A stretch of DNA of 48,179 nt from a phage, in sequence record OZ503099.1; one strand, given 5' to 3'. The notes beneath the pieces were generated by a model, which saw only the letters and a program-made list of their open reading frames with translations, searched no databases and was not told the DNA's origin. Numbering within the stretch: position 1 is the stretch's first letter; the number at the start of each line of letters is the position of its first letter. Position numbers and translations under genes: made by a program. Below, one piece after another: positions 1,155-43,701 of this stretch.

Positions 1155-1193
1155 TATAATAAATGCTCCTTTGTGAATTTGATGTATATTGTA

Positions 1194-5197
<4,004 letters not shown>

Positions 5198-8864: not shown

Positions 8865-8890
8865 GTTTTGCATCCTGAATTTGACTGATG

Positions 8891-8942
8891 TTGATTATAT
8901 CATCTCAGTAGTGTTGACACCTGCTAGGTGGTGATGTAGATT
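8891..8942. promoter_or_regulatory. Bidirectional promoter module
   Basis: Minus-facing extended -10 TGaTATAAT (8894-8902); plus-facing TTGACA (8914-8919), 17 bp, TAGATT (8937-8942). Confidence 0.45.
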
Positions 8943-8977
8943 CAAGTCATCGAAACGAGATATTGATGAGGTGAGTT

Positions 8978-9271
8978 ATGAAAATTAAAATGTTGATTAC
9001 ATCTGTCCTGTTGGCTTCTTCTTTTGCCGTCAGTGCAACTTCCGAGGTGTGCAAAAACATCGGAGAAATCGCCATGAACACTGCAGATGTTCGCGATAAC
9101 GGTATCAGCAAGAATCTTGCGGAAGTGGTGGTAAAAGGTTCCGCAAAAAACAACGAATCAGCAGAAATAATCGGCCTTGCTATCGTAGAAATGGTTTATG
9201 CACGCAAGGATATGACCAAAGAGCAATTGCGTGATGTGGCTGTTTCTTTGTGCGAAAAGCAAGGGATGTAA
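8978..9271 (+). CDS. Small secreted protein (N-terminal signal peptide)
   Basis: MKIKMLITSVLLASSFAVSA then TSE: typical Sec signal peptide; RBS GAGGTGAG upstream; first gene of plus-strand island A. Confidence 0.55.
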   Translation: MKIKMLITSVLLASSFAVSATSEVCKNIGEIAMNTADVRDNGISKNLAEVVVKGSAKNNESAEIIGLAIVEMVYARKDMTKEQLRDVAVSLCEKQGM

Positions 9272-9280
9272 GATTCTGCT

Positions 9281-9424
9281 ATGAACGAACAAACAAAAGC
9301 TGACCTGATTTTCTATACTGATTTGTATGTCGATGCGGGTTACGACTACGAAGAAGCGGAACGCATGGCGAAAGACTTACTCCGCGTGATTGGCGTGATT
9401 TTTGATGAGGATAAGGTGATATGA
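9281..9424 (+). CDS. Hypothetical small acidic protein (47 aa)
   Basis: ATG 9281 to TGA 9424, hand-translated; stop overlaps next start (ATGA). Confidence 0.35.
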   Translation: MNEQTKADLIFYTDLYVDAGYDYEEAERMAKDLLRVIGVIFDEDKVI

Positions 9425-9711
9425 AAAATTATGAAGAGATGAGCGATTTTGAGATTAACTGCCGTGTGCACGCAGAGATTATGCAAATCTCAGGGTTGAA
9501 TTCATTTAAGGCAAAAGACTACTGCAACAACCCATCTTATGCATGGCCCATAATAATTGATAATCACATGTCAATTGAATGCGTCACGGTTAACCGGCAT
9601 GCGTTTACATATCGCGTGTATCACTCTGCATCGTTCACTAAAAGTACGCACGAAAACCCCCTTCGTGCCGCCATGATCGTCTTCCTTAAAATGAATGAGG
9701 ATAAATTATGA
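9421..9711 (+). CDS. Hypothetical protein
   Basis: 96-aa ORF, translationally coupled within island A. Confidence 0.5.
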   Translation: MKNYEEMSDFEINCRVHAEIMQISGLNSFKAKDYCNNPSYAWPIIIDNHMSIECVTVNRHAFTYRVYHSASFTKSTHENPLRAAMIVFLKMNEDKL

Positions 9712-9908
9712 GCCAGTGGATTAAGTGTAGTGAAATGCTACCTGGTAACGGTAGTACAGATAAAGAGTTCTTGGTGTATGAAACTTTGAATAATGCCGTT
9801 CAGCACGACTACTACATTGTTCCTGACGACGAGAGAAAGCCATTCTGGAATCACTACGGAAAATATGTAACGCACTGGATGCCACTACCACAACCACCAC
9901 AAGAATAA
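9708..9908 (+). CDS. DUF551-like small phage protein
   Basis: MSQWIKCSEMLPGNG...THWMPLPQPP resembles the DUF551 pattern as I remember it. Confidence 0.45.
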   Translation: MSQWIKCSEMLPGNGSTDKEFLVYETLNNAVQHDYYIVPDDERKPFWNHYGKYVTHWMPLPQPPQE

Positions 9909-10654: not shown

Positions 10655-10690
10655 TTCGATCTCCGAATTGTGTTAGCTGCTAACGTGGTG

Positions 10691-10734
10691 ATTATATCAC
10701 AGGTGTTGACAGTGATTATTTTGTGGTGTAGATT
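10691..10734. promoter_or_regulatory. Bidirectional promoter module (paralogue of 8891-8942)
   Basis: Minus-facing TGaTATAAT (10691-10699); plus-facing TTGACA (10706-10711), 17 bp, TAGATT (10729-10734); shares GATTATATCA with the 8891 module. Confidence 0.45.
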
Positions 10735-10735
10735 G

Positions 10736-11228
10736 TATTTCAGATAGTTTTCGTTAGCGACTTTGCGGACTTTTTAGAAACTGACCACAAAGATAAATGC
10801 AAACGATGATGTTGTTCTGATGGCGGCGTAATAGCCTGTAAGTCAGCAAGGTCTTCCGATTCCTTGTAAACAAATTCGGCGCAGTGGCCCGCTGTGATTA
10901 ATAATGGGCACGCAACAGGTAAGAGCATTGGGTAATGTCAGCCTTGGTTCGAAGTCGAAAGACATGCGGTAATACCCAGCCCAAGTTCCAGTGCTCTTTC
11001 CGTTGTGGTGAAGCTCAATGGCGAGCTAGCAGATAGGCGACAGTGAAAATACTAGTCATGTAGCTGACCGCCGCGCGTACTGTAATCGGCAGCGCACCGA
11101 TGGAAGCAGGTTCGATTCCTGTCGCCACAACACTTAATATCCAGCATTATCGCAATCATATGTAGGGGTATGTATGGGTTACGGGGCTGGATATTAAGAA
11201 AGCACGCTGGCAATGCTTAAGCCAGTAA
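10736..11228 (+). other. Orphan transcribed non-coding region (candidate ncRNA or decayed island)
   Basis: About 500 bp between a consensus plus-strand promoter and a terminator, with no ORF above about 20 aa on the plus strand; 13-bp inverted repeat at 11141-11153 / 11187-11199. Confidence 0.3.
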
Positions 11229-13724: not shown

Positions 13725-13754
13725 GTTGACGTAGATTGATGTGACGTTTATAGT
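13725..13754 (+). promoter_or_regulatory. Promoter of island B with repeated TGACGT(AGA) sites
   Basis: TTGACG (13725-13730), 18 bp, TATAGT (13749-13754); TTGACGTAGATTG at 13725-13737; TGACGT at 13726-13731, 13742-13747 and 13759-13764. Confidence 0.45.
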
Positions 13755-13794
13755 AGGTGACGTAGAAACAGCAATAAATGTTAGGGTGAATGAG

Positions 13795-13992
13795 ATGAGA
13801 GCAGCAAGCATGTACTACTGTATGTTCCGCAATACCGTGATTGATTTCCGCGATTGTGTTGACGCAATCAGCAACGCTGGTTCCATTGATGACTTCAGCA
13901 TCCCAGAGCGCGGCGCTGCTGAACTAATGTATCACCTGGCTAATGCATACATTGCAAACTATGAACTTTTATTAGAAGAAAGTGGTGAATGA
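13795..13992 (+). CDS. Hypothetical protein
   Basis: ATG 13795 (MRAASMYY...) downstream of predicted promoter. Confidence 0.4.
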   Translation: MRAASMYYCMFRNTVIDFRDCVDAISNAGSIDDFSIPERGAAELMYHLANAYIANYELLLEESGE

Positions 13993-13993
13993 G

Positions 13994-14338
13994 ATGAAAG
14001 AATTTAAAGGTACGCCCGGGCCGTGGGTCGCAGATATTCGCGGAGGTTGCGCAGCTATTTACCCGTCTTGTCGAACTGATGACACGCCGGGCTGTCACCA
14101 CGACGATGACAGAAATATTGCCTTCTCTAGCAAGGGTGCAAAATACAACGGTATGCATTGGGAGATTGATGGCAGCGTTGTGCATGACTTTAATTTAATG
14201 GCAGCGGCCCCTGAGTTGCTTGAAGCTCTGCAAAAAATGCTTGGCAAGGCATACAAACAAAACTGGAATGAGCAATACCCAGAAGAATTGCTGTTAGCTG
14301 AAGAATCTATCAAGAAAGCATTAGGAAAGAAACAATGA
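13994..14338 (+). CDS. Hypothetical protein
   Basis: 114-aa ORF (MKEFKGTPGPW...), Cys/His-containing. Confidence 0.45.
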   Translation: MKEFKGTPGPWVADIRGGCAAIYPSCRTDDTPGCHHDDDRNIAFSSKGAKYNGMHWEIDGSVVHDFNLMAAAPELLEALQKMLGKAYKQNWNEQYPEELLLAEESIKKALGKKQ

Positions 14339-15144
14339 AAACACTAAGCAAAATCTATTCAGACAAAGAAACGCGCAACGGTATTGCTGTTAACAAAACC
14401 TATCTCGTGCCAGTGGAGCGAATCTATCTGGAGCCGGGATATAACATCCGTGAAGCAGATGAGCAACACGTTGAATATTTCGCTCAGTGCTGGGAATCAG
14501 GTCAGCCATTGCCAGCATTAACAGTTATCCCTGACGACAAAGGAATCCGCATTCTTGATGGACAGCATCGCTATCTCGGCGCATTGCGTGCCATTGAGCG
14601 CGGTGCACCAATCGTTCGCATTGAGTGTAAGGATTTCACTGGCGATGAGGCAGACAAAATCGCCTTCATGGTGTCATCCAGTCAGGGTAAGCAGCTTGAC
14701 CCGTTTGAGCGCGCAAAGGCTTATACGCGACTGAAGGGCTTTGGATGGACGAATGAAGAAATCGCCAAGAAGGTAGGGCGCTCAGTGTCTGACGTGCAAA
14801 TGCATTTGTCGTTGGGTGATGTGCCAGCGGAAGTAAAAGCGCGCATCAGTGCTGGGCAAATCAGCTATGCAAACGCCGTAGCAGTAACGCGTGAGCACGG
14901 AGATGATGCGGTAAAAGTTATCGACGAGGCAGTCGAAGAAGCGAAGGCGCAAGGCAAGGATAAGGTCACAGCGAAGGTGCTGAAGTCGAAAAAGATTAAG
15001 CCAGTGGACCGCCTGATTGAGTTACTGAAGCCAGCAGACCACGTGATTCTTCCTGCTGGTCATGTGGTGGTTGAGGATGAGGAATTTATCCAGATTCCTG
15101 TTGCTGATATTCACGAGGTCATGGCAATTCTGGAGAAGATGTGA
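14335..15144 (+). CDS. ParB/Srx-fold (ParB N-terminal-like, DGQHR motif) protein
   Basis: 269 aa with ...GIRILDGQHRYLGALRAIERG... in the N-terminal third, typical of ParB-like nuclease/NTPase domains. Confidence 0.55.
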   Translation: MKTLSKIYSDKETRNGIAVNKTYLVPVERIYLEPGYNIREADEQHVEYFAQCWESGQPLPALTVIPDDKGIRILDGQHRYLGALRAIERGAPIVRIECKDFTGDEADKIAFMVSSSQGKQLDPFERAKAYTRLKGFGWTNEEIAKKVGRSVSDVQMHLSLGDVPAEVKARISAGQISYANAVAVTREHGDDAVKVIDEAVEEAKAQGKDKVTAKVLKSKKIKPVDRLIELLKPADHVILPAGHVVVEDEEFIQIPVADIHEVMAILEKM

Positions 15145-15335
15145 TGAGTAAGTATGAAGAGTTGGACCTGAAGATATTGCACATGCTTTCTGTTAAGCCA
15201 ACTCCTGTTTTTGATATATGGCTTAAGTTTCGTGATGATGTTAGAGACATTACGGTTATTGATCGGCGTATGCAGGTACTGAAAAAGAAAGGTCTTGTTT
15301 ACAACGTTCGCGGATGTGGTTGGGTTAAGCTATGA
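15144..15335 (+). CDS. Small protein, possible winged-helix DNA binder
   Basis: 63 aa; helix-rich pattern (LKILHML...RMQVLKKKGLV); TGATG overlap with upstream gene. Confidence 0.35.
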   Translation: MSKYEELDLKILHMLSVKPTPVFDIWLKFRDDVRDITVIDRRMQVLKKKGLVYNVRGCGWVKL

Positions 15336-15505
15336 CACCAGAACAATTCATCGAAAAACAACTGCGCGCCAAGCTGACTGACATCGACCAGATGGCAATT
15401 GATGCGGCGATTCAGTATTACAAGCGCAATCAGAGCGCAAAGAAGGGAGGCATTTTTGAGGAATGCCTGAAGGTTGCAAAACAGCACATGATTAAGGTGA
15501 AGTGA
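15332..15505 (+). CDS. Hypothetical small protein (57 aa)
   Basis: ATG 15332 to TGA 15505, hand-translated; ATGA/TGATG overlaps with both neighbours. Confidence 0.35.
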   Translation: MTPEQFIEKQLRAKLTDIDQMAIDAAIQYYKRNQSAKKGGIFEECLKVAKQHMIKVK

Positions 15506-21881: not shown

Positions 21882-22376
21882 TCATACTCTTGCTTCTTGC
21901 GTTTGGCTTTCCCCATGCTGACCTCTTACGTTGCGAAGAAGTGAATTGAACAGGTTGCTCACATTAACTTCCTGCTCATGCCATGAGTAACTCCACAGCT
22001 TCTTGTGGTGGTCATAGCTTCGCGTCACGTCTCCGTTATGAAACATAATGCGGATGCGGTTTTTCACGATTCGATAATCAATGCTAGTGTCTGCGCTAAT
22101 TTCTTTCACCTCTGCGCCAGCGTTATCAATCAAATGGCACTTAATGGCATCATCAATACCTGCCGCATCATCAGAGATGAAATATTTATACTGCCACTTA
22201 CCGCCACGAATCACTGACTTCTCACGGCGAATAAAGCCAAGTGCCAGCATCTCATGCAAACGATGCGTAGTTGTGCTTGAATGTTTACCACCGCAATGCT
22301 TTTCAATGTATGCGCGCGTTGCTCCCGGATGATTGACAATCACGCGCATTATTTGCGATTCATAGTCCATAATCAC
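21882..22376 (-). CDS. Hypothetical protein with N-terminal winged-helix-like region
   Basis: 164 aa; N-terminal 70 aa resemble a winged-helix DNA-binding fold. Confidence 0.35.
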   Translation of the reverse strand: MIMDYESQIMRVIVNHPGATRAYIEKHCGGKHSSTTTHRLHEMLALGFIRREKSVIRGGKWQYKYFISDDAAGIDDAIKCHLIDNAGAEVKEISADTSIDYRIVKNRIRIMFHNGDVTRSYDHHKKLWSYSWHEQEVNVSNLFNSLLRNVRGQHGESQTQEARV

Positions 22377-23054: not shown

Positions 23055-23153
23055 TTCCACATCACCTTTTCTGTTATGGTACAATCTACGTCAACAAGTA
23101 TTGACTAAGTGATGTAGAAACGTCAAGATGTTTTTCGAGAAGGAGTAGTAAAT

Positions 23154-26036: not shown

Positions 26037-26076
26037 TTGATGTAGATTGAGAGGTGGTGCATACTATCTACATCAA
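26037..26076 (+). promoter_or_regulatory. Promoter of island D with palindromic operator-like site
   Basis: TTGATG (26037-26042), 17 bp, CATACT (26060-26065); inverted repeat TTGATGTAGAT (26037-26047) / ATCTACATCAA (26066-26076). Confidence 0.45.
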
Positions 26077-26740: not shown

Positions 26741-26952
26741 GCAACAAGAAGGTAATTGTTGGTGGCATTTACAAGAGTAATTACTCTTGGGGCGATGCAG
26801 GTGTGGCTAGTTTCATGGTAACTGCGGTTGGGTTGGAACACATACTTATCGCTGACTACCCATTGATAAAACTCAATGAATCCTGTTTAGAATATTGTGT
26901 TGGTAGAAAGGAATTCGAATCAAAATTTGAGTTTGTGGAGGAAACAAAATGA
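26737..26952 (+). CDS. Hypothetical protein
   Basis: 71-aa ORF; ATGA overlap. Confidence 0.45.
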   Translation: MSNKKVIVGGIYKSNYSWGDAGVASFMVTAVGLEHILIADYPLIKLNESCLEYCVGRKEFESKFEFVEETK

Positions 26953-27599
26953 AACTTATCGACCTGTTAGTTCAAGAATTGCCTAAGCGTGGTGGGTGGC
27001 CTCACAATGCGCTGTCAATTACCCAAGATGATGACGGTTCTCTGTGCGTATGGGACACAAATGACCCAAACTATGATGGATTGTCATGGAGACATCACAC
27101 AGGGAATAGCCTTGTATATTACTGGCGTGGAATTGATGCCGTACCTTTATCTTGCGACCACAGGGAGTCGATAGTGACCTATTGGCAATACAAATCAGCG
27201 ATCGCAGCATCGCAAAAGCCAGCATGGAACGGAGATGGCTTACCGCCAGTTGGTGAAAAAGTAGAATTTTTCATCAATCCAAAGTTTGGATACCGCAATG
27301 ACTGGATTCCTGCTGCTGGAACTGAAATGGAAGTAGTTGCACACAAGAAAACCACGGACGGAAACGATGTGGCTGTTTGCTACTGGGATGAGGGTGGCGC
27401 CGGTCGGTCATGCTGCTTCGTGCCTGAAAGCCTAAAGCCATTACGCACAGAAGCAGAAAAGAAGCATGAGGCTGTACTTGAGTCTATCTGCGCGGTGTTA
27501 GAAATGGTAGCTCAAGATTACAAGCGCGAGGACGAGGCCAAGCTAATTTATGAAGCTATCGCGGCAGGCAAGATTCCAGGTGTTAAACTGGATGATTAA
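26949..27599 (+). CDS. Hypothetical protein (216 aa, Trp-rich)
   Basis: Largest ORF of island D; no recognisable motif. Confidence 0.5.
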   Translation: MKLIDLLVQELPKRGGWPHNALSITQDDDGSLCVWDTNDPNYDGLSWRHHTGNSLVYYWRGIDAVPLSCDHRESIVTYWQYKSAIAASQKPAWNGDGLPPVGEKVEFFINPKFGYRNDWIPAAGTEMEVVAHKKTTDGNDVAVCYWDEGGAGRSCCFVPESLKPLRTEAEKKHEAVLESICAVLEMVAQDYKREDEAKLIYEAIAAGKIPGVKLDD

Positions 27600-31103: not shown

Positions 31104-31370
31104 TCACCCTCTCAAAAAATCATTCTTGCAGCAGATACCCTTATATCCGCGCTTCTCCTGCAGGTTAACGAAAACATCATCCAGAACGCGTAGCAGGAAG
31201 TCTTCGTCGATATCATACCGACGACAAATCACCTCGTCAGGCACGCCAGCTCGCGCCAGTGAATAAACCTGCTCTTTTTCCTCCTGTGTGAACCCTGCAT
31301 AGCTGCGCATAGTGATATCTCCGATAAGCCTGATGTAGATTATACTATTCGCTCGGTGTAGATTGGTCAA
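31104..31370 (-). CDS. Hypothetical protein with helix-turn-helix-like segment
   Basis: 88-aa ORF. Confidence 0.4.
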   Translation of the reverse strand: MTNLHRANSIIYIRLIGDITMRSYAGFTQEEKEQVYSLARAGVPDEVICRRYDIDEDFLLRVLDDVFVNLQEKRGYKGICCKNDFLRG

Positions 31371-31386
31371 GTGTGGTGATGAAGAT

Positions 31387-32811
31387 TTATCGCCTGCGAC
31401 GGATTAGCATTCCACTGCCACGCTGAACGATGTGGTCATTGAGTGCATAACGAACCGCGTCCCAGTAGTGGTTATATGCATCAACAATATCAGTCAGCAC
31501 ATTCCCTGTCAGCTTATCAACTTTGTAGCTGTACATTGCCGCCTCATTCTGCATCTCCTTGCATCGTTCGTGAATGACAATGCTGTCGCAGCCGCGTAAC
31601 CATGTCACGCCATCCTCGACACTGCCGGGCCATTTTGTGCATGGATGAATGTCAAAGCCAGAGCGCTTGATGTGGCTGATAGTTTCTGGTCGCGCGCAGT
31701 CGGCATACCATCGTGCGCGCTTAGCCATCGGGAATGATTGCTCCATCGCAGCTGGCGTGTCGGTAATCTCAAGCCCCACCTTTCCGTACTCGCGATTAAT
31801 ATAAATATTGCGTCGCCCGCCGGGTAACTCTTCGATGTAAACCTCAACCATTGCGGTTGGATCGGTGGAAAACCCAAAGTCCATCCCGAAGTATGGTCCA
31901 TGCCATTCAGGCTTGACCTCGAAGTTATCAATGAGCCATTTTCCGCCAAATACCTGTTCGTCGCTACGCTTGTTGAATTTTCCTTCATACACCCAAAGGT
32001 AGCGATCATAATCCACTGCCTTCATCTGGTTCATGTGCTGTTTAAGTTCTTCCGTGAACCACGGGTTGTGAACGTAGTTAACATTAACAACAACGATGTC
32101 ATCATCCTGATATATGCCATCTACCATCTTGTCGATGTAAGGCTCAACAAAGTTAGTCCATGTCGGGTCCGTCTCTTTGTTCGGGTTAAAAACAATAATA
32201 ATTTCAGAACCAGCGGCGCGCACCGTTGGAATTAACGTATCCCATGACACCTGACTGATGTTTTCGGATTCTTCACAGAACACGTCTGTAAGGCCAGCCA
32301 TGCCTTTGATTGCGGTTATGTTTCGCCAAAGGCCACGAAAAACAAACTTTGATCTCGTTGTGTGGTGTGTTATCTCGCCATCCACGCAACGATATTCCTG
32401 AGTGTGCCCCTTCCTGTTTATCTCATCAACCAGTTCGGCATAGCTTGATTCTTTGATTGAGTTCTGTATCTCACGGAAGCATCCGACGCGGCTGTTGCGG
32501 AATCTTGCCTTTTCTATAAGGTAAGAAACAACGTTAGCCGTCTTTCCGCTGCCCCTACCCCCATAGAACACCTTGAAACGGCGAGGATAAAGCAGCAGCT
32601 CCATTCGCTCAGGTATTAATATTGTTGGCTTCTCGTCTGTTTCTGACACGCCAGTGGCTGTCATTTTAAGGCACTTAACCACATTCGGTGTACCGTCAGG
32701 CAATAGCTTATCGACAATACCGAAAACAGAAGACTCTGGTTTTGCAGTTGAATTGCCTACTGCTTGCTCAAGTTTTTCTATCGCAACGCTTGAGAGTCTT
32801 TTACGCGCCAT
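31387..32811 (-). CDS. Terminase large subunit
   Basis: Walker A YGGRGSGKT near the N-terminus, conserved acidic nuclease-type residues in the C-terminal half, 474 aa. Confidence 0.8.
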   Translation of the reverse strand: MARKRLSSVAIEKLEQAVGNSTAKPESSVFGIVDKLLPDGTPNVVKCLKMTATGVSETDEKPTILIPERMELLLYPRRFKVFYGGRGSGKTANVVSYLIEKARFRNSRVGCFREIQNSIKESSYAELVDEINRKGHTQEYRCVDGEITHHTTRSKFVFRGLWRNITAIKGMAGLTDVFCEESENISQVSWDTLIPTVRAAGSEIIIVFNPNKETDPTWTNFVEPYIDKMVDGIYQDDDIVVVNVNYVHNPWFTEELKQHMNQMKAVDYDRYLWVYEGKFNKRSDEQVFGGKWLIDNFEVKPEWHGPYFGMDFGFSTDPTAMVEVYIEELPGGRRNIYINREYGKVGLEITDTPAAMEQSFPMAKRARWYADCARPETISHIKRSGFDIHPCTKWPGSVEDGVTWLRGCDSIVIHERCKEMQNEAAMYSYKVDKLTGNVLTDIVDAYNHYWDAVRYALNDHIVQRGSGMLIRRRR

Positions 32812-33319
32812 GATTGCAAAATTCTCCCTGATGTTTCTCCCTGAACTGTCTTATTGCACGATCAGCATCATCAATTGATGAAAACCTACCTATTTTGTGA
32901 TACTTGCCAAATAACCAGCATTGGGCTATCCACTTTCCCCTTTGATTATCCCAGCTAACTCCCTTGATTCCAGATGTGTTGTTTTTTTGCATCCTCTTGT
33001 TCCACTGATTCTGTGATGTTGTGGCCAGTCTTAAATTTTTAATCCTGTTATCGTTGCGAATGCCATTAATGTGGTCAACTTGTTCTTCAGGCCAAGCTCC
33101 ATAGACGTAAAGCCATGCCAGCCTATGAGCAAGATAGATTCTTCCACTTATTCCTATTTCCACATACCCCTTCTTAGGTTTTATCCTGCCAGCAATGCTT
33201 CCAGAATTTATTCTTCTGCTTGGCTTACTTAACCACGTGAAAACACCAGTGTCTGGATTGTAATGCAGGAGGTGTTTAAGTCTCTCTTGAGTGATGGGCA
33301 ACTCTTTTAATGATGGCAT
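32801..33319 (-). CDS. HNH homing endonuclease with AP2-type domain
   Basis: DHINGIRNDNRIKNLRLATTSQNQWN plus SGIKGVSWDNQRGKWIAQ; paralogue of 4710-5201 and 40538-41128; sits between putative small and large terminase genes. Confidence 0.75.
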   Translation of the reverse strand: MPSLKELPITQERLKHLLHYNPDTGVFTWLSKPSRRINSGSIAGRIKPKKGYVEIGISGRIYLAHRLAWLYVYGAWPEEQVDHINGIRNDNRIKNLRLATTSQNQWNKRMQKNNTSGIKGVSWDNQRGKWIAQCWLFGKYHKIGRFSSIDDADRAIRQFREKHQGEFCNHGA

Positions 33320-36404: not shown

Positions 36405-36434
36405 CTCTTCACCCCCGTTTGTTACGATGAGTTC

Positions 36435-36463
36435 AATCTACATCAATGATGATTCTACGTCAA
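36435..36463 (-). promoter_or_regulatory. Minus-strand promoter for the long leftward transcription unit
   Basis: On the minus strand TTGACG (36458-36463), 17 bp, TAGATT (36435-36440); two copies of the recurrent 13-bp motif. Confidence 0.45.
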
Positions 36464-36539: not shown

Positions 36540-36890
36540 GTGCATTTATCCGTTTTATCCCGCTGATTTTTTCATTTATCCCAAAGATTTCGTTATAAAT
36601 CATAACATTGCGTCGTTTTATCTCATTTAACCTTATCCTGAATCTAATAGAGAGAAATATAATTTTTGAAATGGATTTTTGGTGAGTGAAAAAGATGGTA
36701 AGAAAAACGGGGTAAATGGGATAAATAATAGTATATATCAATAATAATATTAATAAATACATATACTTATCAACAAAATTACTTATCCCAAACTTTCCCC
36801 GTTCTTATCCCGATTTATACCGAATTGCATTTAGCGGATAAGTGATTTGCTAATGTTGCGGCTTGGTTGACATGGAGAATGGATAAGAAT
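36540..36890. promoter_or_regulatory. AT-rich region with clustered TTATCC (DnaA-box core-like) repeats; candidate replication origin
   Basis: TTATCC at 36546, 36555, 36576, 36633, 36783, 36805 (plus) and GGATAA at 36719, 36836, 36881 (minus); very AT-rich block 36721-36780. Confidence 0.4.
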
Positions 36891-36895
36891 AAGAT
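36867..36895 (+). promoter_or_regulatory. Promoter of the P1-P4 operon
   Basis: TTGACA (36867-36872), 17 bp, TAAGAT (36890-36895); GGAGG RBS 5 nt before ATG 36925. Confidence 0.5.
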
Positions 36896-36924
36896 ACTTT
36901 ATGTATAAGTGCGCGGAGGTTTTA

Positions 36925-40396: not shown

Positions 40397-40479
40397 TTGA
40401 CGATGATGTAGATTCATTGTAATTTACTCACATGAAACGCGCAAGCGTTCTTGACATGAAACGCAACTGAGTTTAACAT
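40397..40479 (+). promoter_or_regulatory. Tandem promoters of the helicase/recombination operon with CATGAAACGC direct repeat
   Basis: TTGACG (40397-40402), 17 bp, TAATTT (40420-40425); TTGACA (40451-40456), 17 bp, TAACAT (40474-40479); repeat at 40431-40440 and 40455-40464. Confidence 0.4.
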
Positions 40480-40537
40480 CGAGGATAAGAAATGGCTATC
40501 ACTCTGAAAAAGTGCAAAAATTGTGGGGGAGAATTCT

Positions 40538-41128
40538 ATGGAACATCAAGAGCTGAGTTTTGTTGTTCAGGATGCAGACTCAAAAGTTTCCGAGAAAAAA
40601 AGAAGGGTGCTAAAAATTGATGTTGATTACGTGACATCAAGGTTAGAGGTTGTCAATGGACGCCTGTATTGGAAAAGGAGAGATGAATTAACGCCATACC
40701 ACAAAACATGGAATGCACGGTATCCGGGGAAACCTGCTGACAATAAGCTTGACAAAATGAATTACAGGCTTGTGATGATTGATGGTGTTTATTATAAAGC
40801 ACATAGAATTGTATGGGCTATATGCAAACAGCAAGACCCTGGAGCTATGGACATTGATCACATCAATACAATTAAGAACGATAACAGGATAGAAAATCTC
40901 AGGTTGGCTGATTGCAGTCAAAACAAATGGAATAAAGGCTTATCATCAAATAACACTAGCGGATACAAAGGTGTTAGTTGGTTCAAAAGGGAGAAACGGT
41001 GGGTTGCTCAGATTTGGGTTAGAGGTAAAAAGAAAGTTATTGGTTATTTTAATACCCCTGAAGATGCACATAAAGCGTATGCAAAAGCATCATCAAGTCT
41101 TCATGGTGAATTTGGTAGGGTAAAATAA
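40538..41128 (+). CDS. HNH homing endonuclease with AP2-type domain
   Basis: DHINTIKNDNRIENLRLADCSQNKWN plus SGYKGVSWFKREKRWVAQIW; stop overlaps helicase start (TAATG). Confidence 0.7.
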   Translation: MEHQELSFVVQDADSKVSEKKRRVLKIDVDYVTSRLEVVNGRLYWKRRDELTPYHKTWNARYPGKPADNKLDKMNYRLVMIDGVYYKAHRIVWAICKQQDPGAMDIDHINTIKNDNRIENLRLADCSQNKWNKGLSSNNTSGYKGVSWFKREKRWVAQIWVRGKKKVIGYFNTPEDAHKAYAKASSSLHGEFGRVK

Positions 41129-43062
41129 TGCATAAAATAGACAAGATGATTTCAGAAATTGATATAGATAAATTAAAGAAATCAATAAAACTAGGCTCCA
41201 TAGAGCCATATGATTACCAATGGCTTGTTTACGCAAAGTGCGCTGAGGTTATTCGTAATTTTGGAAAGAAACCTGAACCAAGCTATGTTACAGCGTCTGT
41301 TTCATCAGGAAAGACCGTGATGATTTCAATGCTTTGCAGTAGATTTCAGGATATGGGGTGGGAGGGTCTTGTAATCTCAAGGCAGGGCGAGATAGCTGAG
41401 CAGAATGCTGAAATGATGTGGGAGTGTGGTGTAAAAAACTCTCTTTATAGCGCATCTCTTGGTAGGAAAAGTACAGCATACCCTATTATATGCGGCACTG
41501 AAGGAACAATAGTTAACGCACTTTTTGATAAAAAAGATGAATCAAATGGTGACGTTAAGAAAGGTGGGTTGAGTGATTTTACCCCAAGATTTTGCCTTTG
41601 CGATGAAGGGCACCAAGTACCGTGGCAGGATATTGTCGGTGGTGATCCAACAACACAGTATGGCGTTATACTGACCGAGTTAAATCGACGCTGTAAGGCA
41701 AAGTATGGCCATGACATGATAACTATCGGATTCACTGGAAGCCCTTTCCGTGGCACCGAGTCAATGAAAGGTGCGTATTGGAAGAATGAAATAATAAACA
41801 TTGACACAAAGTACATGGTAGATCGCGGATTTGTTGTTCCAACAATCTTTGGCCTTCATGATGTTGATGATTTGCAATACGACCTTTCATCATTTCATGG
41901 CTCTGATGTTGACGGAACGCAGGATTTCACCGCAGAACAACTCAAGCAGATGCAGAAAGAAATTCTTGATCAAGGTACGCTAACGCAAAAAATAATGATG
42001 AAGGTTGTCGAACTAACAAAAGACCGGAATGGGGTTCTGATTACCTGTGCAGGGAAGAAGCACTGCTTGGAAGCCGCTAAATATTTACCTGAAGGAAGTT
42101 ATGCGATTGTCACCGAAGATATGGGGCAAAAAGCAAGGCGCAAAGCTCTAAAGGATGCGTACACTGGCAAAATAAAATACACATTCCAGATCGCCGCGCT
42201 TACAACTGGCGTTAATATCCCCTTATGGGATGTAAGCGTGATATTACGAAAAATAATGTCGCTAACTCTCCTTGTCCAGCTTCTTGGTCGCGGTATGCGC
42301 CTGCTGAAGAAGGAGCAAATTGATGCCGGGTATCATAAAGAAGACCATCTGGTTCTTGATTTCTCAGGAACGATGTTTGAGCTTGGTCAGTTGTATGAAG
42401 ACCCGATTCTGGAAGAGGCAGAAGCGCAGCGTTCAAAACGCAGTGGTGAACAGGTTCCGTGCCCGAAATGCGGAACGATGAACAGCCCATACGCTCGTCG
42501 CTGCATTGGCAAAGATGCATTGTCGCCAGATGGTCGTTGCGAAGAGTTCTTCAGTTACATCCGTTGCGGTTTCGATAAGCACGGCATCCGTATTTTTGAT
42601 GATGGATGTGGTACTAAAAACGACCCTACTGCGCGTTATTGCCGACATTGCGATCATGTTTTGCGCGACCCGAATGCTGCACTGAATGAGCGTGCGTATA
42701 CCGACAATGAATGGGCTGATGTTATGGACTTCAAAGTACAGTTGACGAAGGACGGAGAGGGAATTTTATATCGCTACTGGATTAATCGTTGTGATGGCAA
42801 AGAAGGCTGGGCTAATGAAGTTTTCTATCCATACGGTGGCGCAACTCACATGAAAAACATGTTTAAGGCAAAGGCGGTTTTTCCTCACCTTGATGATAAG
42901 TCAATGGCGGGTAAAATCCTGAAATGCCAGAACGCCAAGCAGTTCATGATGTATGCGGGATTGATTAAAGCGCCAAAACGCATCACTCATCGCATCAACG
43001 ATAAAGGCAGAGACATAATCCACCGCAAAGAATTTAAAGGAGAACAAAGTGAAGCAGCTTGA
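41128..43062 (+). CDS. ATP-dependent DNA helicase (SF2, DEAH-type) with C-terminal Cys-rich region
   Basis: Motif I ASVSSGKT, motif II CDEGHQ, motif VI QLLGRGMR; C-terminal CPKCG...RCIG and CRHCDH zinc-ribbon-like pairs. Confidence 0.8.
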   Translation: MHKIDKMISEIDIDKLKKSIKLGSIEPYDYQWLVYAKCAEVIRNFGKKPEPSYVTASVSSGKTVMISMLCSRFQDMGWEGLVISRQGEIAEQNAEMMWECGVKNSLYSASLGRKSTAYPIICGTEGTIVNALFDKKDESNGDVKKGGLSDFTPRFCLCDEGHQVPWQDIVGGDPTTQYGVILTELNRRCKAKYGHDMITIGFTGSPFRGTESMKGAYWKNEIINIDTKYMVDRGFVVPTIFGLHDVDDLQYDLSSFHGSDVDGTQDFTAEQLKQMQKEILDQGTLTQKIMMKVVELTKDRNGVLITCAGKKHCLEAAKYLPEGSYAIVTEDMGQKARRKALKDAYTGKIKYTFQIAALTTGVNIPLWDVSVILRKIMSLTLLVQLLGRGMRLLKKEQIDAGYHKEDHLVLDFSGTMFELGQLYEDPILEEAEAQRSKRSGEQVPCPKCGTMNSPYARRCIGKDALSPDGRCEEFFSYIRCGFDKHGIRIFDDGCGTKNDPTARYCRHCDHVLRDPNAALNERAYTDNEWADVMDFKVQLTKDGEGILYRYWINRCDGKEGWANEVFYPYGGATHMKNMFKAKAVFPHLDDKSMAGKILKCQNAKQFMMYAGLIKAPKRITHRINDKGRDIIHRKEFKGEQSEAA

Positions 43063-43489
43063 TAGCGGTATATGGGTATTTGATAGCGGTTATCGTGGGG
43101 AGTGTAATTCAGAGGAAACGGAACAGATGACTTATGGGTTGTGGATGGATTATCACTTCCCTGATGTCATATGGTTTCATGTTCCAAATGAGACAGGGAC
43201 AAAAAGCGGTGCGCAGTTCGTTATAAAGAGAAAAAAAATGGGCGTAAAAAGCGGAGTGAGCGACGTAATTATACTAAGCAATGGTGTTGCTCATTCTTGC
43301 GCAGTAATTGAGCTTAAGAAAGAAGATAGAGCAAAATCTCAGGTATCAAAAGACCAACGCAAATTTCTTGAGAGGGCGCATAGAGAAGGCAAGTTCGCAG
43401 CTATAGCATACGGTGCTGAACAACTAAAAAAAGCCACGCTTTTCTATTTTGGCTTGCCTTTTGATGTGGATTGGTGTAGATTCAACTAA
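43049..43489 (+). CDS. VRR-NUC-type (PD-(D/E)XK) nuclease domain protein
   Basis: GVSDVIIL...AVIELKKE arrangement typical of VRR-NUC; GTG start with AAGGAG RBS. Confidence 0.5.
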   Translation: MKQLDSGIWVFDSGYRGECNSEETEQMTYGLWMDYHFPDVIWFHVPNETGTKSGAQFVIKRKKMGVKSGVSDVIILSNGVAHSCAVIELKKEDRAKSQVSKDQRKFLERAHREGKFAAIAYGAEQLKKATLFYFGLPFDVDWCRFN

Positions 43490-43503: not shown

Positions 43504-43701
43504 GTGATGAAGATGAAATTATTCTGTGCAAGTTCAACGAGTTTCAGATTTACAGAGGGTGAGCTGTATGATGCAGAGTTCAACGGAATGCAGTTTCGCA
43601 TTAATGATGATGCAGGAAACGCATGGAATGGATGGTACGAAGATGAGTCTGGTTTTATTGTGGTAAGCATGGTTGGTGGTGATTTTGTGGAGTTTGAGTG
43701 A
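43504..43701 (+). CDS. Hypothetical small protein
   Basis: 65-aa ORF. Confidence 0.4.
   Translation: MMKMKLFCASSTSFRFTEGELYDAEFNGMQFRINDDAGNAWNGWYEDESGFIVVSMVGGDFVEFE

Follow-up and report, generated by a model that had tools for sequence, protein, structure and literature searches.

Operators that overlap promoters are known from lambda OR and OL, where they are read by cI and Cro, and from the direct-repeat operators of the P2 C repressor. The middle promoters of T4 carry a MotA box at -30 and depend on sigma appropriation by AsiA, and at lambda PR' a -35-like TTGACT abuts a pause-inducing, -10-like sequence, giving a sigma-70-dependent pause. In T4-type phages, moreover, early promoters are found in mobile cassettes termed PeSL.

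The element analysed here is a 13-bp box, TTGAYGTAGATTG, whose core, TGAYGTAGATT, is flanked by weaker positions. It resembles the lambda and P2 operators in that several short conserved sites lie inside the polymerase footprint of each region, at divergent promoter pairs and also over the promoter of a gene for a small helix-turn-helix-like protein. Unlike those operators, it occurs at about nine regions genome-wide, in a phage that is apparently virulent, and it is itself composed of promoter-like hexamers; its cognate protein is only a candidate. A single site is asymmetric, with no dyad in the consensus. This sets the box apart from the palindromic RK2 site, although about a dozen 13-bp copies at many operon promoters, together with an encoded KorB-domain protein, otherwise recall the RK2 KorB/KorA regulon. 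Literature searches by phage name, by genus and with the sequence itself turned up neither an account of the box nor mapped transcription starts for this phage family. The box is real, conserved and apparently undescribed, yet of a familiar kind, namely, a family-specific regulatory box.

The window, that is, the whole stretch of 48,179 nucleotides that was analysed (OZ503099.1), is the genome of a Shuimuvirus/Skatevirus-like siphophage. The 4-kb stretch around the piece displayed above is about 90% identical to Escherichia, Salmonella and Shigella siphophages (Bas78, ASO78B, IME207-like); its identity to phages of Klebsiella, Vibrio and Aeromonas is 60-80%. IME207 belongs to Shuimuvirus, to which Skatevirus, Macdonaldcampvirus and Roufvirus are among the related genera. 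By our own gene calls, which were compared with the annotations of Bas78 and ASO78B, 89% of the window is coding; the late genes all lie on the minus strand, broken up by short plus-strand cassettes, and a hairpin terminator is predicted after several of these.

A preliminary description of this DNA had listed near-identical copies of the motif at about a dozen sites. All of these copies exist, with coordinates off by 1-2 nt at most, and the motif was correctly described as a -35-like TTGAYG fused to a -10-like TAGATT that takes different registers at different sites. Its enrichment against a shuffled background is clear: with up to two mismatches allowed, TTGAYGTAGATTG has 16 matches, versus 3.36 ± 1.92 expected from 100 dinucleotide shuffles of the window, none of which (0/100) reaches 16. 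In an unbiased k-mer scan, TGATGTAGA ranks first in over-representation among the 9-mers of the window (8 observed, 0.51 expected). A weight matrix returned 19 hits at 12 bits or more, versus 3.2 ± 1.9, a count that is partly circular because the matrix was made from these same sites; 14 of the 19 are intergenic, and intergenic DNA accounts for 10.6% of the window (binomial P = 1.6e-10). The edges of the box are sharp, with information limited to 11-13 positions in 272 unique family contexts. The copies and the promoters assigned in the window are listed below.

1179-1191, plus strand: variant copy TTGATGTATATTG, between two minus-strand tail genes and antisense to both; kept in Bas78 and seszw, not in KpV2811; its membership in the set is uncertain.
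8885, plus strand: weak box copy, absent, like the copies at 1179 and 31376, from the preliminary list.
8931-8943, plus strand: box GTGATGTAGATTC; its TAGATT is the -10 of P1.
P1, plus strand: TTGACA at 8914-8919, 17-nt spacer, TAGATT; drives small plus-strand genes at 8978-9908.
10723-10735, plus strand: box GTGGTGTAGATTG; its TAGATT is the -10 of P2.
P2, plus strand: TTGACA at 10706-10711, 17-nt spacer, TAGATT; drives a non-coding, tmRNA-like region (tRNAs in relatives).
13726-13738, plus strand: box TTGACGTAGATTG; its TTGACG is the -35 of P3.
P3, plus strand: promoter of the ParB-like operon, TTGACG at 13726, 17-nt spacer, -10 TATAGT at 13749-13754; its equivalent is annotated as a sigma-70-like promoter in the ASO78B record.
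13757-13769, plus strand: box GTGACGTAGAAAC, beginning 2 nt past the P3 -10, at about -4 to +9.
23082-23094, minus strand: box TTGACGTAGATTG, beginning 2 nt past the P4 -10, at about -4 to +9.
P4, minus strand: TTGACG at 23126-23121, 18-nt spacer, AATACT at 23102-23097.
23109-23121, plus strand: box GTGATGTAGAAAC, within the P5 spacer and inverted within the P4 spacer.
P5, plus strand: TTGACT at 23101-23106, CAAGAT at 23124-23129.
26037-26049, plus strand: box TTGATGTAGATTG, the -35 of P6; inverted, it overlaps the -35 of P7.
P6, plus strand: -10 CATACT at 26060-26065.
P7, minus strand: lysis promoter, TCTACA at 26046-26041, 16-nt spacer, TAGAAT at 26024-26019; flagged as TG-extended.
26064-26076, minus strand: box TTGATGTAGATAG, inverted over the P6 start site, at about -8 to +5.
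31330-31388, plus strand: three co-oriented copies with 23-nt spacing (31330-31342, 31353-31365 and a weak one at 31376-31388), inverted across P8.
P8, minus strand: TTGACC at 31370-31365, TAGTAT at 31347-31342; drives the gene for a 68-aa protein and the portal cluster.
36434-36463, minus strand: two copies 17 nt apart (36434-36446 and 36451-36463), which supply both P9 hexamers.
P9, minus strand: TTGACG of copy 36451 (at 36463), 17-nt spacer, TAGATT of copy 36434; drives a leftward small-gene operon.
36867: box-less helicase/origin promoter, TTGACA, 17 nt, TAAGAT.
40403-40415, plus strand: box ATGATGTAGATTC, in the P10 spacer and inverted over the P11 start site.
P10, plus strand: TTGACG at 40397-40402, TAATTT at 40420-40425.
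P11, minus strand: primase promoter, TTGCGC at 40444-40439, TACAAT at 40421-40416.
40451: box-less promoter of an HNH-AP2 gene, TTGACA, 17 nt, TAACAT.
43049-43489: VRR-NUC gene (Pfam PF08774), whose 3' end contains the last pair of copies, as the preliminary description had it.
43461-43473 and 43471-43483, plus strand: two copies 10 nt apart, in this 3' end.
P12, plus strand: TTGCCT at 43454-43459, 17-nt spacer, TAGATT of the second copy; drives the gene at 43507.

The assigned promoters follow the sigma-70 pattern (a TTGACA-like hexamer, a spacer of 16-18 nt and a TAnnnT hexamer), and 12 of the 14 bear a box within -37 to +9, extra upstream copies aside. The register varies. At sites 8931, 10723, 36434 and 43471 the TAGATT serves as the -10, so that the box spans -18 to -6, and the copies at 8931 and 10723 each have a perfect TTGACA 17 nt upstream. 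At sites 13726, 36451 and 26037 it is the TTGACG or TTGATG that serves as the -35 (box at -35 to -23). Sites 40403, 23109, 31353 and 43461 fall inside the spacer (about -31 to -15), and sites 13757 and 23082 lie over the start site, from 2 nt after the -10 (about -4 to +9). Over the assigned promoters as a whole, the four registers come to -35 to -23, -29 to -17, -18 to -6 and about -6 to +9, and both orientations occur. Inverted copies over start sites occur at three promoters (26064 at P6, 31330 at P8 and 40403 at P11). Among 361 unique family contexts, each of three tested registers accounts for 21-26% of the copies, versus 2-6% at random positions, and for 42% of the copies a partner hexamer is lacking in all three. 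Copies are usually paired, with recurrent spacings of 10, 17, 23 and 31 nt for direct pairs; inverted pairs are always 27 nt apart, start to start in the case of 26064 and 26037, and this spacing is common to both of their relative orientations.

These registers bear directly on the comparison with T4 and with lambda PR'. One of them, at -35 to -23 (centre about -29) and upstream of a good -10, is like that of the MotA box. However, the MotA box has a fixed position, whereas the box is also seen over +1, within the spacer and at -18 to -6, in some cases inverted; instead of taking the place of a -35 hexamer, it includes a canonical one, and no MotA or AsiA homologue was seen. At P3 and P4, as at lambda PR', a -35-like block abuts a -10-like block just past the real -10, the TAGAAA or TAGATT of the start-site box lying at about +3 to +8; the counterparts of both promoters in KpV2811 and pYD38-A also have a box that starts 2 nt past the -10. 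The box differs from the PR' element in recurring at many promoters, also in other registers, and no Q-type antiterminator was found.

Outside the divergent regions, each copy faces a same-strand gene or RNA, if not in this window then in relatives. In this window no co-oriented gene goes with the copies at 31330 and 31353; their counterparts face a plus-strand 96-aa gene in KpV2811 and pYD38-A, and a 50-aa gene in seszw, upstream of which there are four tandem copies. In most close relatives the divergent gene has its own copy pair, 17 nt apart, and the inner pair, inverted over P8, is kept with or without the divergent gene. In CHRF_10023.1, newly inserted genes for a homing endonuclease and Ant are preceded by fresh copies.

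Conservation of the box extends well beyond close relatives. The 9-mer that ranks first both in Klebsiella phage KpV2811 and in Vibrio phage pYD38-A is TGACGTAGA, located at syntenic regulatory regions, and 77 of 79 metagenomic loci, all recovered via the ParB-like gene, share the copy upstream of the ParB-like operon. In a more distant clade, represented by loci L073 and L074, whose ParB-like protein is 72% identical, the promoters carry TTGACGTAGATA/T; no close relative of L073 was found in the phage collection. A locus search with the 68-aa protein recovered close relatives alone, and when the viral collection was scanned for copies in pairs (GTAGATT N4-34 TGAYGTAGA), the matches were mostly due to chance, in unrelated contigs. 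The box is absent from otherwise unrelated phages that encode a ParB homologue at 45% identity.

The ParB-operon promoter was aligned in 61 distinct versions. Identity in box 1 is 93-100%, also in its TAGATTG, which falls in the spacer, where nothing is read by sigma-70; over the 10 spacer bases that follow it is 49-98%, and these bases vary even where the ParB-like proteins of the phages are 98-99% identical. Box 2 is 90-100% identical past its variable first base, and in the P3 -10 the first five bases are invariant and the sixth is 67% identical. From this alignment, selection appears to act on the entire box, including the half that sigma-70 does not use. The box is thus conserved beyond the needs of host RNA polymerase, and it is therefore probably the docking site of a regulator.

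The gene directly behind the P3 cassette differs among close relatives, which makes this cassette a mosaic boundary. The 5' leader after box 2, at 13770-13806 (ACAACAATAAATGTTAGAGGTGATGA), is invariant in 61 distinct relatives though the next gene differs; it may mark a boundary of recombination, or act as a conserved element in translation initiation or at the RNA level. The SB28 lineage (Macdonaldcampvirus) lacks the ParB-like and RusA-like genes at this place (L084, PQ336902.1 1354-2666; L086, SB28 3500-3900), and its double-box promoter drives a tiny ORF and a 57-aa protein only; CHRF_10023.1 and KE08 have an HNH endonuclease gene and a gene annotated as encoding an HTH protein upstream. 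In being a conserved promoter segment at boundaries where the neighbouring genes of relatives are shuffled, the cassette is like PeSL. Unlike PeSL, it has no associated stem-loop, and only 11-13 bp are common to different box sites, which is too short for homology-driven exchange. An exception to the shortness of the shared sequence is found in the P1 and P2 regions, which are paralogous over about 50 bp; P1 and P2 apart, distinct sites share the 11-13 bp alone and their flanks differ. P1 and P2 also have in common GATTATATCA, upstream of the -35 (8885-8900 and 10684-10699), preceded by the degenerate box-like sequences CTGATGTTGATTA and GTGGTGATTAT.

Two recognisable DNA binders, ParB/KorB-like and MarR-like, were found by Pfam and PHROGs scans of about 50 proteins. 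The proteins considered as possible readers of the box include the following.

14335-15144, plus strand: ParB/KorB-like helix-turn-helix protein (PF17762, 2.6e-11; PF08535, the KorB domain, 1e-5; phrog_1033, 1e-90).
15332-15505: 57-aa protein, present in all natural genomes checked.
21882-22370, minus strand: MarR-like winged-helix protein (phrog_1687).
31104-31310, minus strand: 68-aa protein, a candidate reader, whose promoter, P8, is overlaid by two or three copies.

The ParB/KorB-like protein was rejected as a required reader: its gene is absent in the SB28 lineage, and about 18 conserved copies stay in CHRF_10023.1. This absence was inspected directly in SB28, CHRF_10023.1 and KE08, and by sequence similarity over the same stretch in five further records; because the lineage lacks the gene, the latter is dispensable for keeping the box. 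Neither a palindromic site of 13-16 bp, as for ParB/KorB proteins, nor co-occurrence of protein and site was found. The MarR-like protein was likewise rejected, being absent from Bas78 and from seszw_160L, a viable genome-reduced mutant (Yuan et al., PMC9825161); in addition, its identity in the Klebsiella group, whose boxes are identical, is only 35%. Since each of the two is absent from box-bearing relatives, neither is the obligatory reader.

Small proteins of 47, 64, 66 and 68 residues are present in all five full genomes and are retained in seszw_160L, the 68-aa protein with 100% identity. The latter is family-restricted (16 clusters in 5.8 billion proteins), and its AlphaFold2 model is a bundle of three helices with a pLDDT of 82. 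The best fold matches of this model are nearly all helix-turn-helix DNA binders, at a level that is not significant (best E = 0.58), and the protein is 53% identical between groups that have identical boxes. It is the most suggestive of the small proteins, a weak candidate for the box reader and a lead rather than a finding. A role for the 57-aa protein, which is deleted in seszw_160L, is possible and unsupported. Among the about 50 proteins scanned, no Pfam or PHROGs match to a sigma factor, an AsiA/MotA-like protein or a Q-like antiterminator was obtained, which leaves room for unrecognisable analogues of MotA and AsiA; the sole uncharacterised protein of Q size (26949-27599) is absent from the viable seszw_160L.

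The reading that we prefer, with a probability of about one half, is that the box is an operator for a family-specific, trans-acting DNA-binding factor, placed so that it overlaps core promoters. In this model the phage family's own factor would bind the 11-13-bp box TGAYGTAGATT, which nearly all sigma-70-type promoters of the phage have within their core (-37 to +9), usually twice per regulatory region; once occupied, the box would obstruct host RNA polymerase or modulate its activity at many operons simultaneously. The outcome would be a global temporal switch with autoregulation. The need to leave promoter function intact in several registers would account for a left half that is -35-like and a right half that is -10-like. 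The sites do overlap core promoters, and their conservation exceeds what promoter recognition needs. Such an operator best explains the several registers, the inverted start-site copies, the approximately two copies per region and the conserved unused half. The preliminary description had preferred a dedicated regulator to plain sigma-70 hexamers, and this part of it is strengthened by the conservation of the unused half in each register and by the copies inverted over start sites of the opposite strand. It is weakened in that the box is not separate from sigma-70 promoters, one of its halves often being the best -35 or -10, and in that no such regulator emerged, the two obvious helix-turn-helix proteins being absent from some box-bearing relatives. 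Other features also speak against an operator. The site is asymmetric, whereas helix-turn-helix operators are mostly palindromes, and 11 contiguous conserved bases are much for one small monomer. The close match of an unrelated protein's site to both sigma-70 hexamers would be a coincidence to explain away, and the shared 27-nt inverted spacing fits promoter geometry better than protein-dimer geometry. Lastly, the fresh copies at the homing endonuclease and Ant genes of CHRF_10023.1, together with their poor -35 hexamers, suggest a positive role in expression.

This last point leads to the possibility, clearly less probable than an operator yet one to be taken seriously, that host RNA polymerase itself reads the box non-canonically, either as an autonomous phage-specific promoter or as a sigma-70-dependent pause element. 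As a promoter, TAGATT would be the -10 and TGAYG an upstream extension, recognised after a phage factor remodels sigma-70; as a pause element, the box just past the -10 would act near the promoter with its abutting -35-like block, as at lambda PR', whose pause element the P3 and P4 boxes resemble in geometry. TTGACG matches the hexamer at five of six positions, and TAGATT keeps the two critical bases, the A of position 2 and the T of position 6. The same-strand orientation of all non-divergent copies, including the counterparts of 31330 and 31353 in KpV2811 and pYD38-A, and the acquisition of copies by new genes in CHRF_10023.1 also favour polymerase. So does the invariance of the box across Salmonella, Klebsiella, Escherichia, Vibrio and Aeromonas phages, which fits a highly conserved reader such as sigma-70. 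Among the DNA-binding proteins of the phage, none combines universal presence with high conservation. However, none of the sigma, AsiA/MotA-like or Q-like proteins that might assist was recognised in the scan, TGAYG departs from the extended -10 as it is known (TGn), four registers and inverted start-site copies are not what a fixed geometry of polymerase would predict, and four tandem copies before the 50-aa gene would be an excess of promoters. A compact mode of sigma-70, in which region 4 would contact TTGAYG and region 2 the abutting TAGATT after a small phage protein repositions region 4, seems improbable. If true, it would give a virulent siphophage genome-wide sigma-dependent pause or appropriation sites, and would extend the single Q-loading architecture of lambda PR' to a whole regulon.

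A simpler account, only a little behind non-canonical reading by polymerase in our estimate, is that these are ordinary host sigma-70 promoters that have no dedicated reader, their similarity being due to common descent, to recombination of promoter cassettes or to an idiosyncratic polymerase optimum. Many sites are indeed textbook promoters, and the ASO78B annotators marked the P3 equivalent as sigma-70; the paralogy of P1 and P2 and the mosaic boundary at P3 are also as this account would have it. Yet, beyond P1 and P2, the shared sequence stops at the box, the half that is irrelevant to sigma-70 is 93-100% identical while adjoining spacer bases vary, two good promoters of the same genome (36867 and 40451) do without the box, and the 42% of family copies that have no partner hexamer in the tested registers are left unaccounted for. 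Very little weight can be given to the ParB/KorB-like protein as a global regulator acting, like RK2 KorB, on about a dozen operators. In its favour, it is the sole protein with a significant helix-turn-helix hit, has two copies on its own operon promoter, is 81% identical between groups with identical boxes and is retained in seszw_160L. Against this stand the SB28 lineage, which has lost the gene while CHRF_10023.1 keeps its copies and even shows new ones, the unrelated phages whose 45%-identity homologues occur without the box, and the palindromic nature of known ParB/KorB sites, which the box does not share. An equally minor possibility, in our view, is that the box is bound by some conserved DNA-binding protein of the host, RNA polymerase apart. 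Invariance across phages of several gammaproteobacterial genera would be in keeping with it, but the consensus sites of CRP, FNR, Fis, IHF, DnaA, MatP, SlmA, Tus, ArcA, OmpR, NarL and EvgA match the box at a half-site or at 7 of 13 positions at most.

Several further features of the window came to light, some of them adjacent to box sites.

10684-11135, plus strand: tmRNA-like gene, in a 600-bp gene-less gap downstream of P2.
32801-33163, minus strand: endonuclease with HNH_3 and AP2 domains.
36540-36900: at least 10 TTATCC(C)/GGGATAA boxes in both orientations, flanking AT-rich DNA at 36730-36770, directly upstream of the replicative helicase operon.
40430-40464: exact 11-nt direct repeat ACATGAAACGC, at 40430 and 40454, bracketing the -35 of the box-less HNH-AP2 promoter.
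40493-41128, plus strand: second endonuclease with HNH_3 and AP2 domains, with its own box-less promoter; its true start appears to be the ATG at 40493.

At curated gathering thresholds, Rfam gave nothing in the window. Below threshold, the tmRNA-like gene matches tmRNA_permuted (30 bits, E = 2e-4) and, more weakly, beta_tmRNA and tmRNA, and ARAGORN calls a tmRNA at 10684-11131, at its relaxed threshold only. The putative tmRNA has a resume-codon consensus, the tag ANDDVVLMAA and the T-arm GGTTCGATTCC; relatives of the Klebsiella group encode the tag ANEEMYLAVA at the same place, and several relatives have added tRNAs or a rearranged 5' part at this locus. The repeats at 36540-36900 are probably a replication origin with iterons or DnaA-box-like repeats, and this helicase/origin module is present in seszw, with none in Bas78, KpV2811, pYD38-A or CHRF_10023.1. 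The endonuclease at 32801-33163, whose gene is immediately upstream of that of the large terminase, may be associated with packaging, and the ACATGAAACGC repeat may be a separate regulatory repeat. Over the whole window, GCCAGTG and its reverse complement occur 32 times versus about 11 expected, with 26 occurrences on the plus strand and 6 on the minus strand, mostly in minus-strand late genes and in two reading frames.

What the box means for these phages depends on what reads it. If an ordinary small repressor does, the result would be a tidy and unsurprising regulon; if host sigma-70 reads the box non-canonically, the mechanism would be new. The family (Shuimuvirus, Skatevirus, Macdonaldcampvirus, Roufvirus and the Klebsiella relatives) is widely isolated, and is used with therapy and genome reduction in mind. 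For genome engineering the box is relevant in that a cassette that is deleted or relocated takes its boxes along, and the presence of the box on nearly all promoters offers a direct experimental handle on the timing of phage gene expression.
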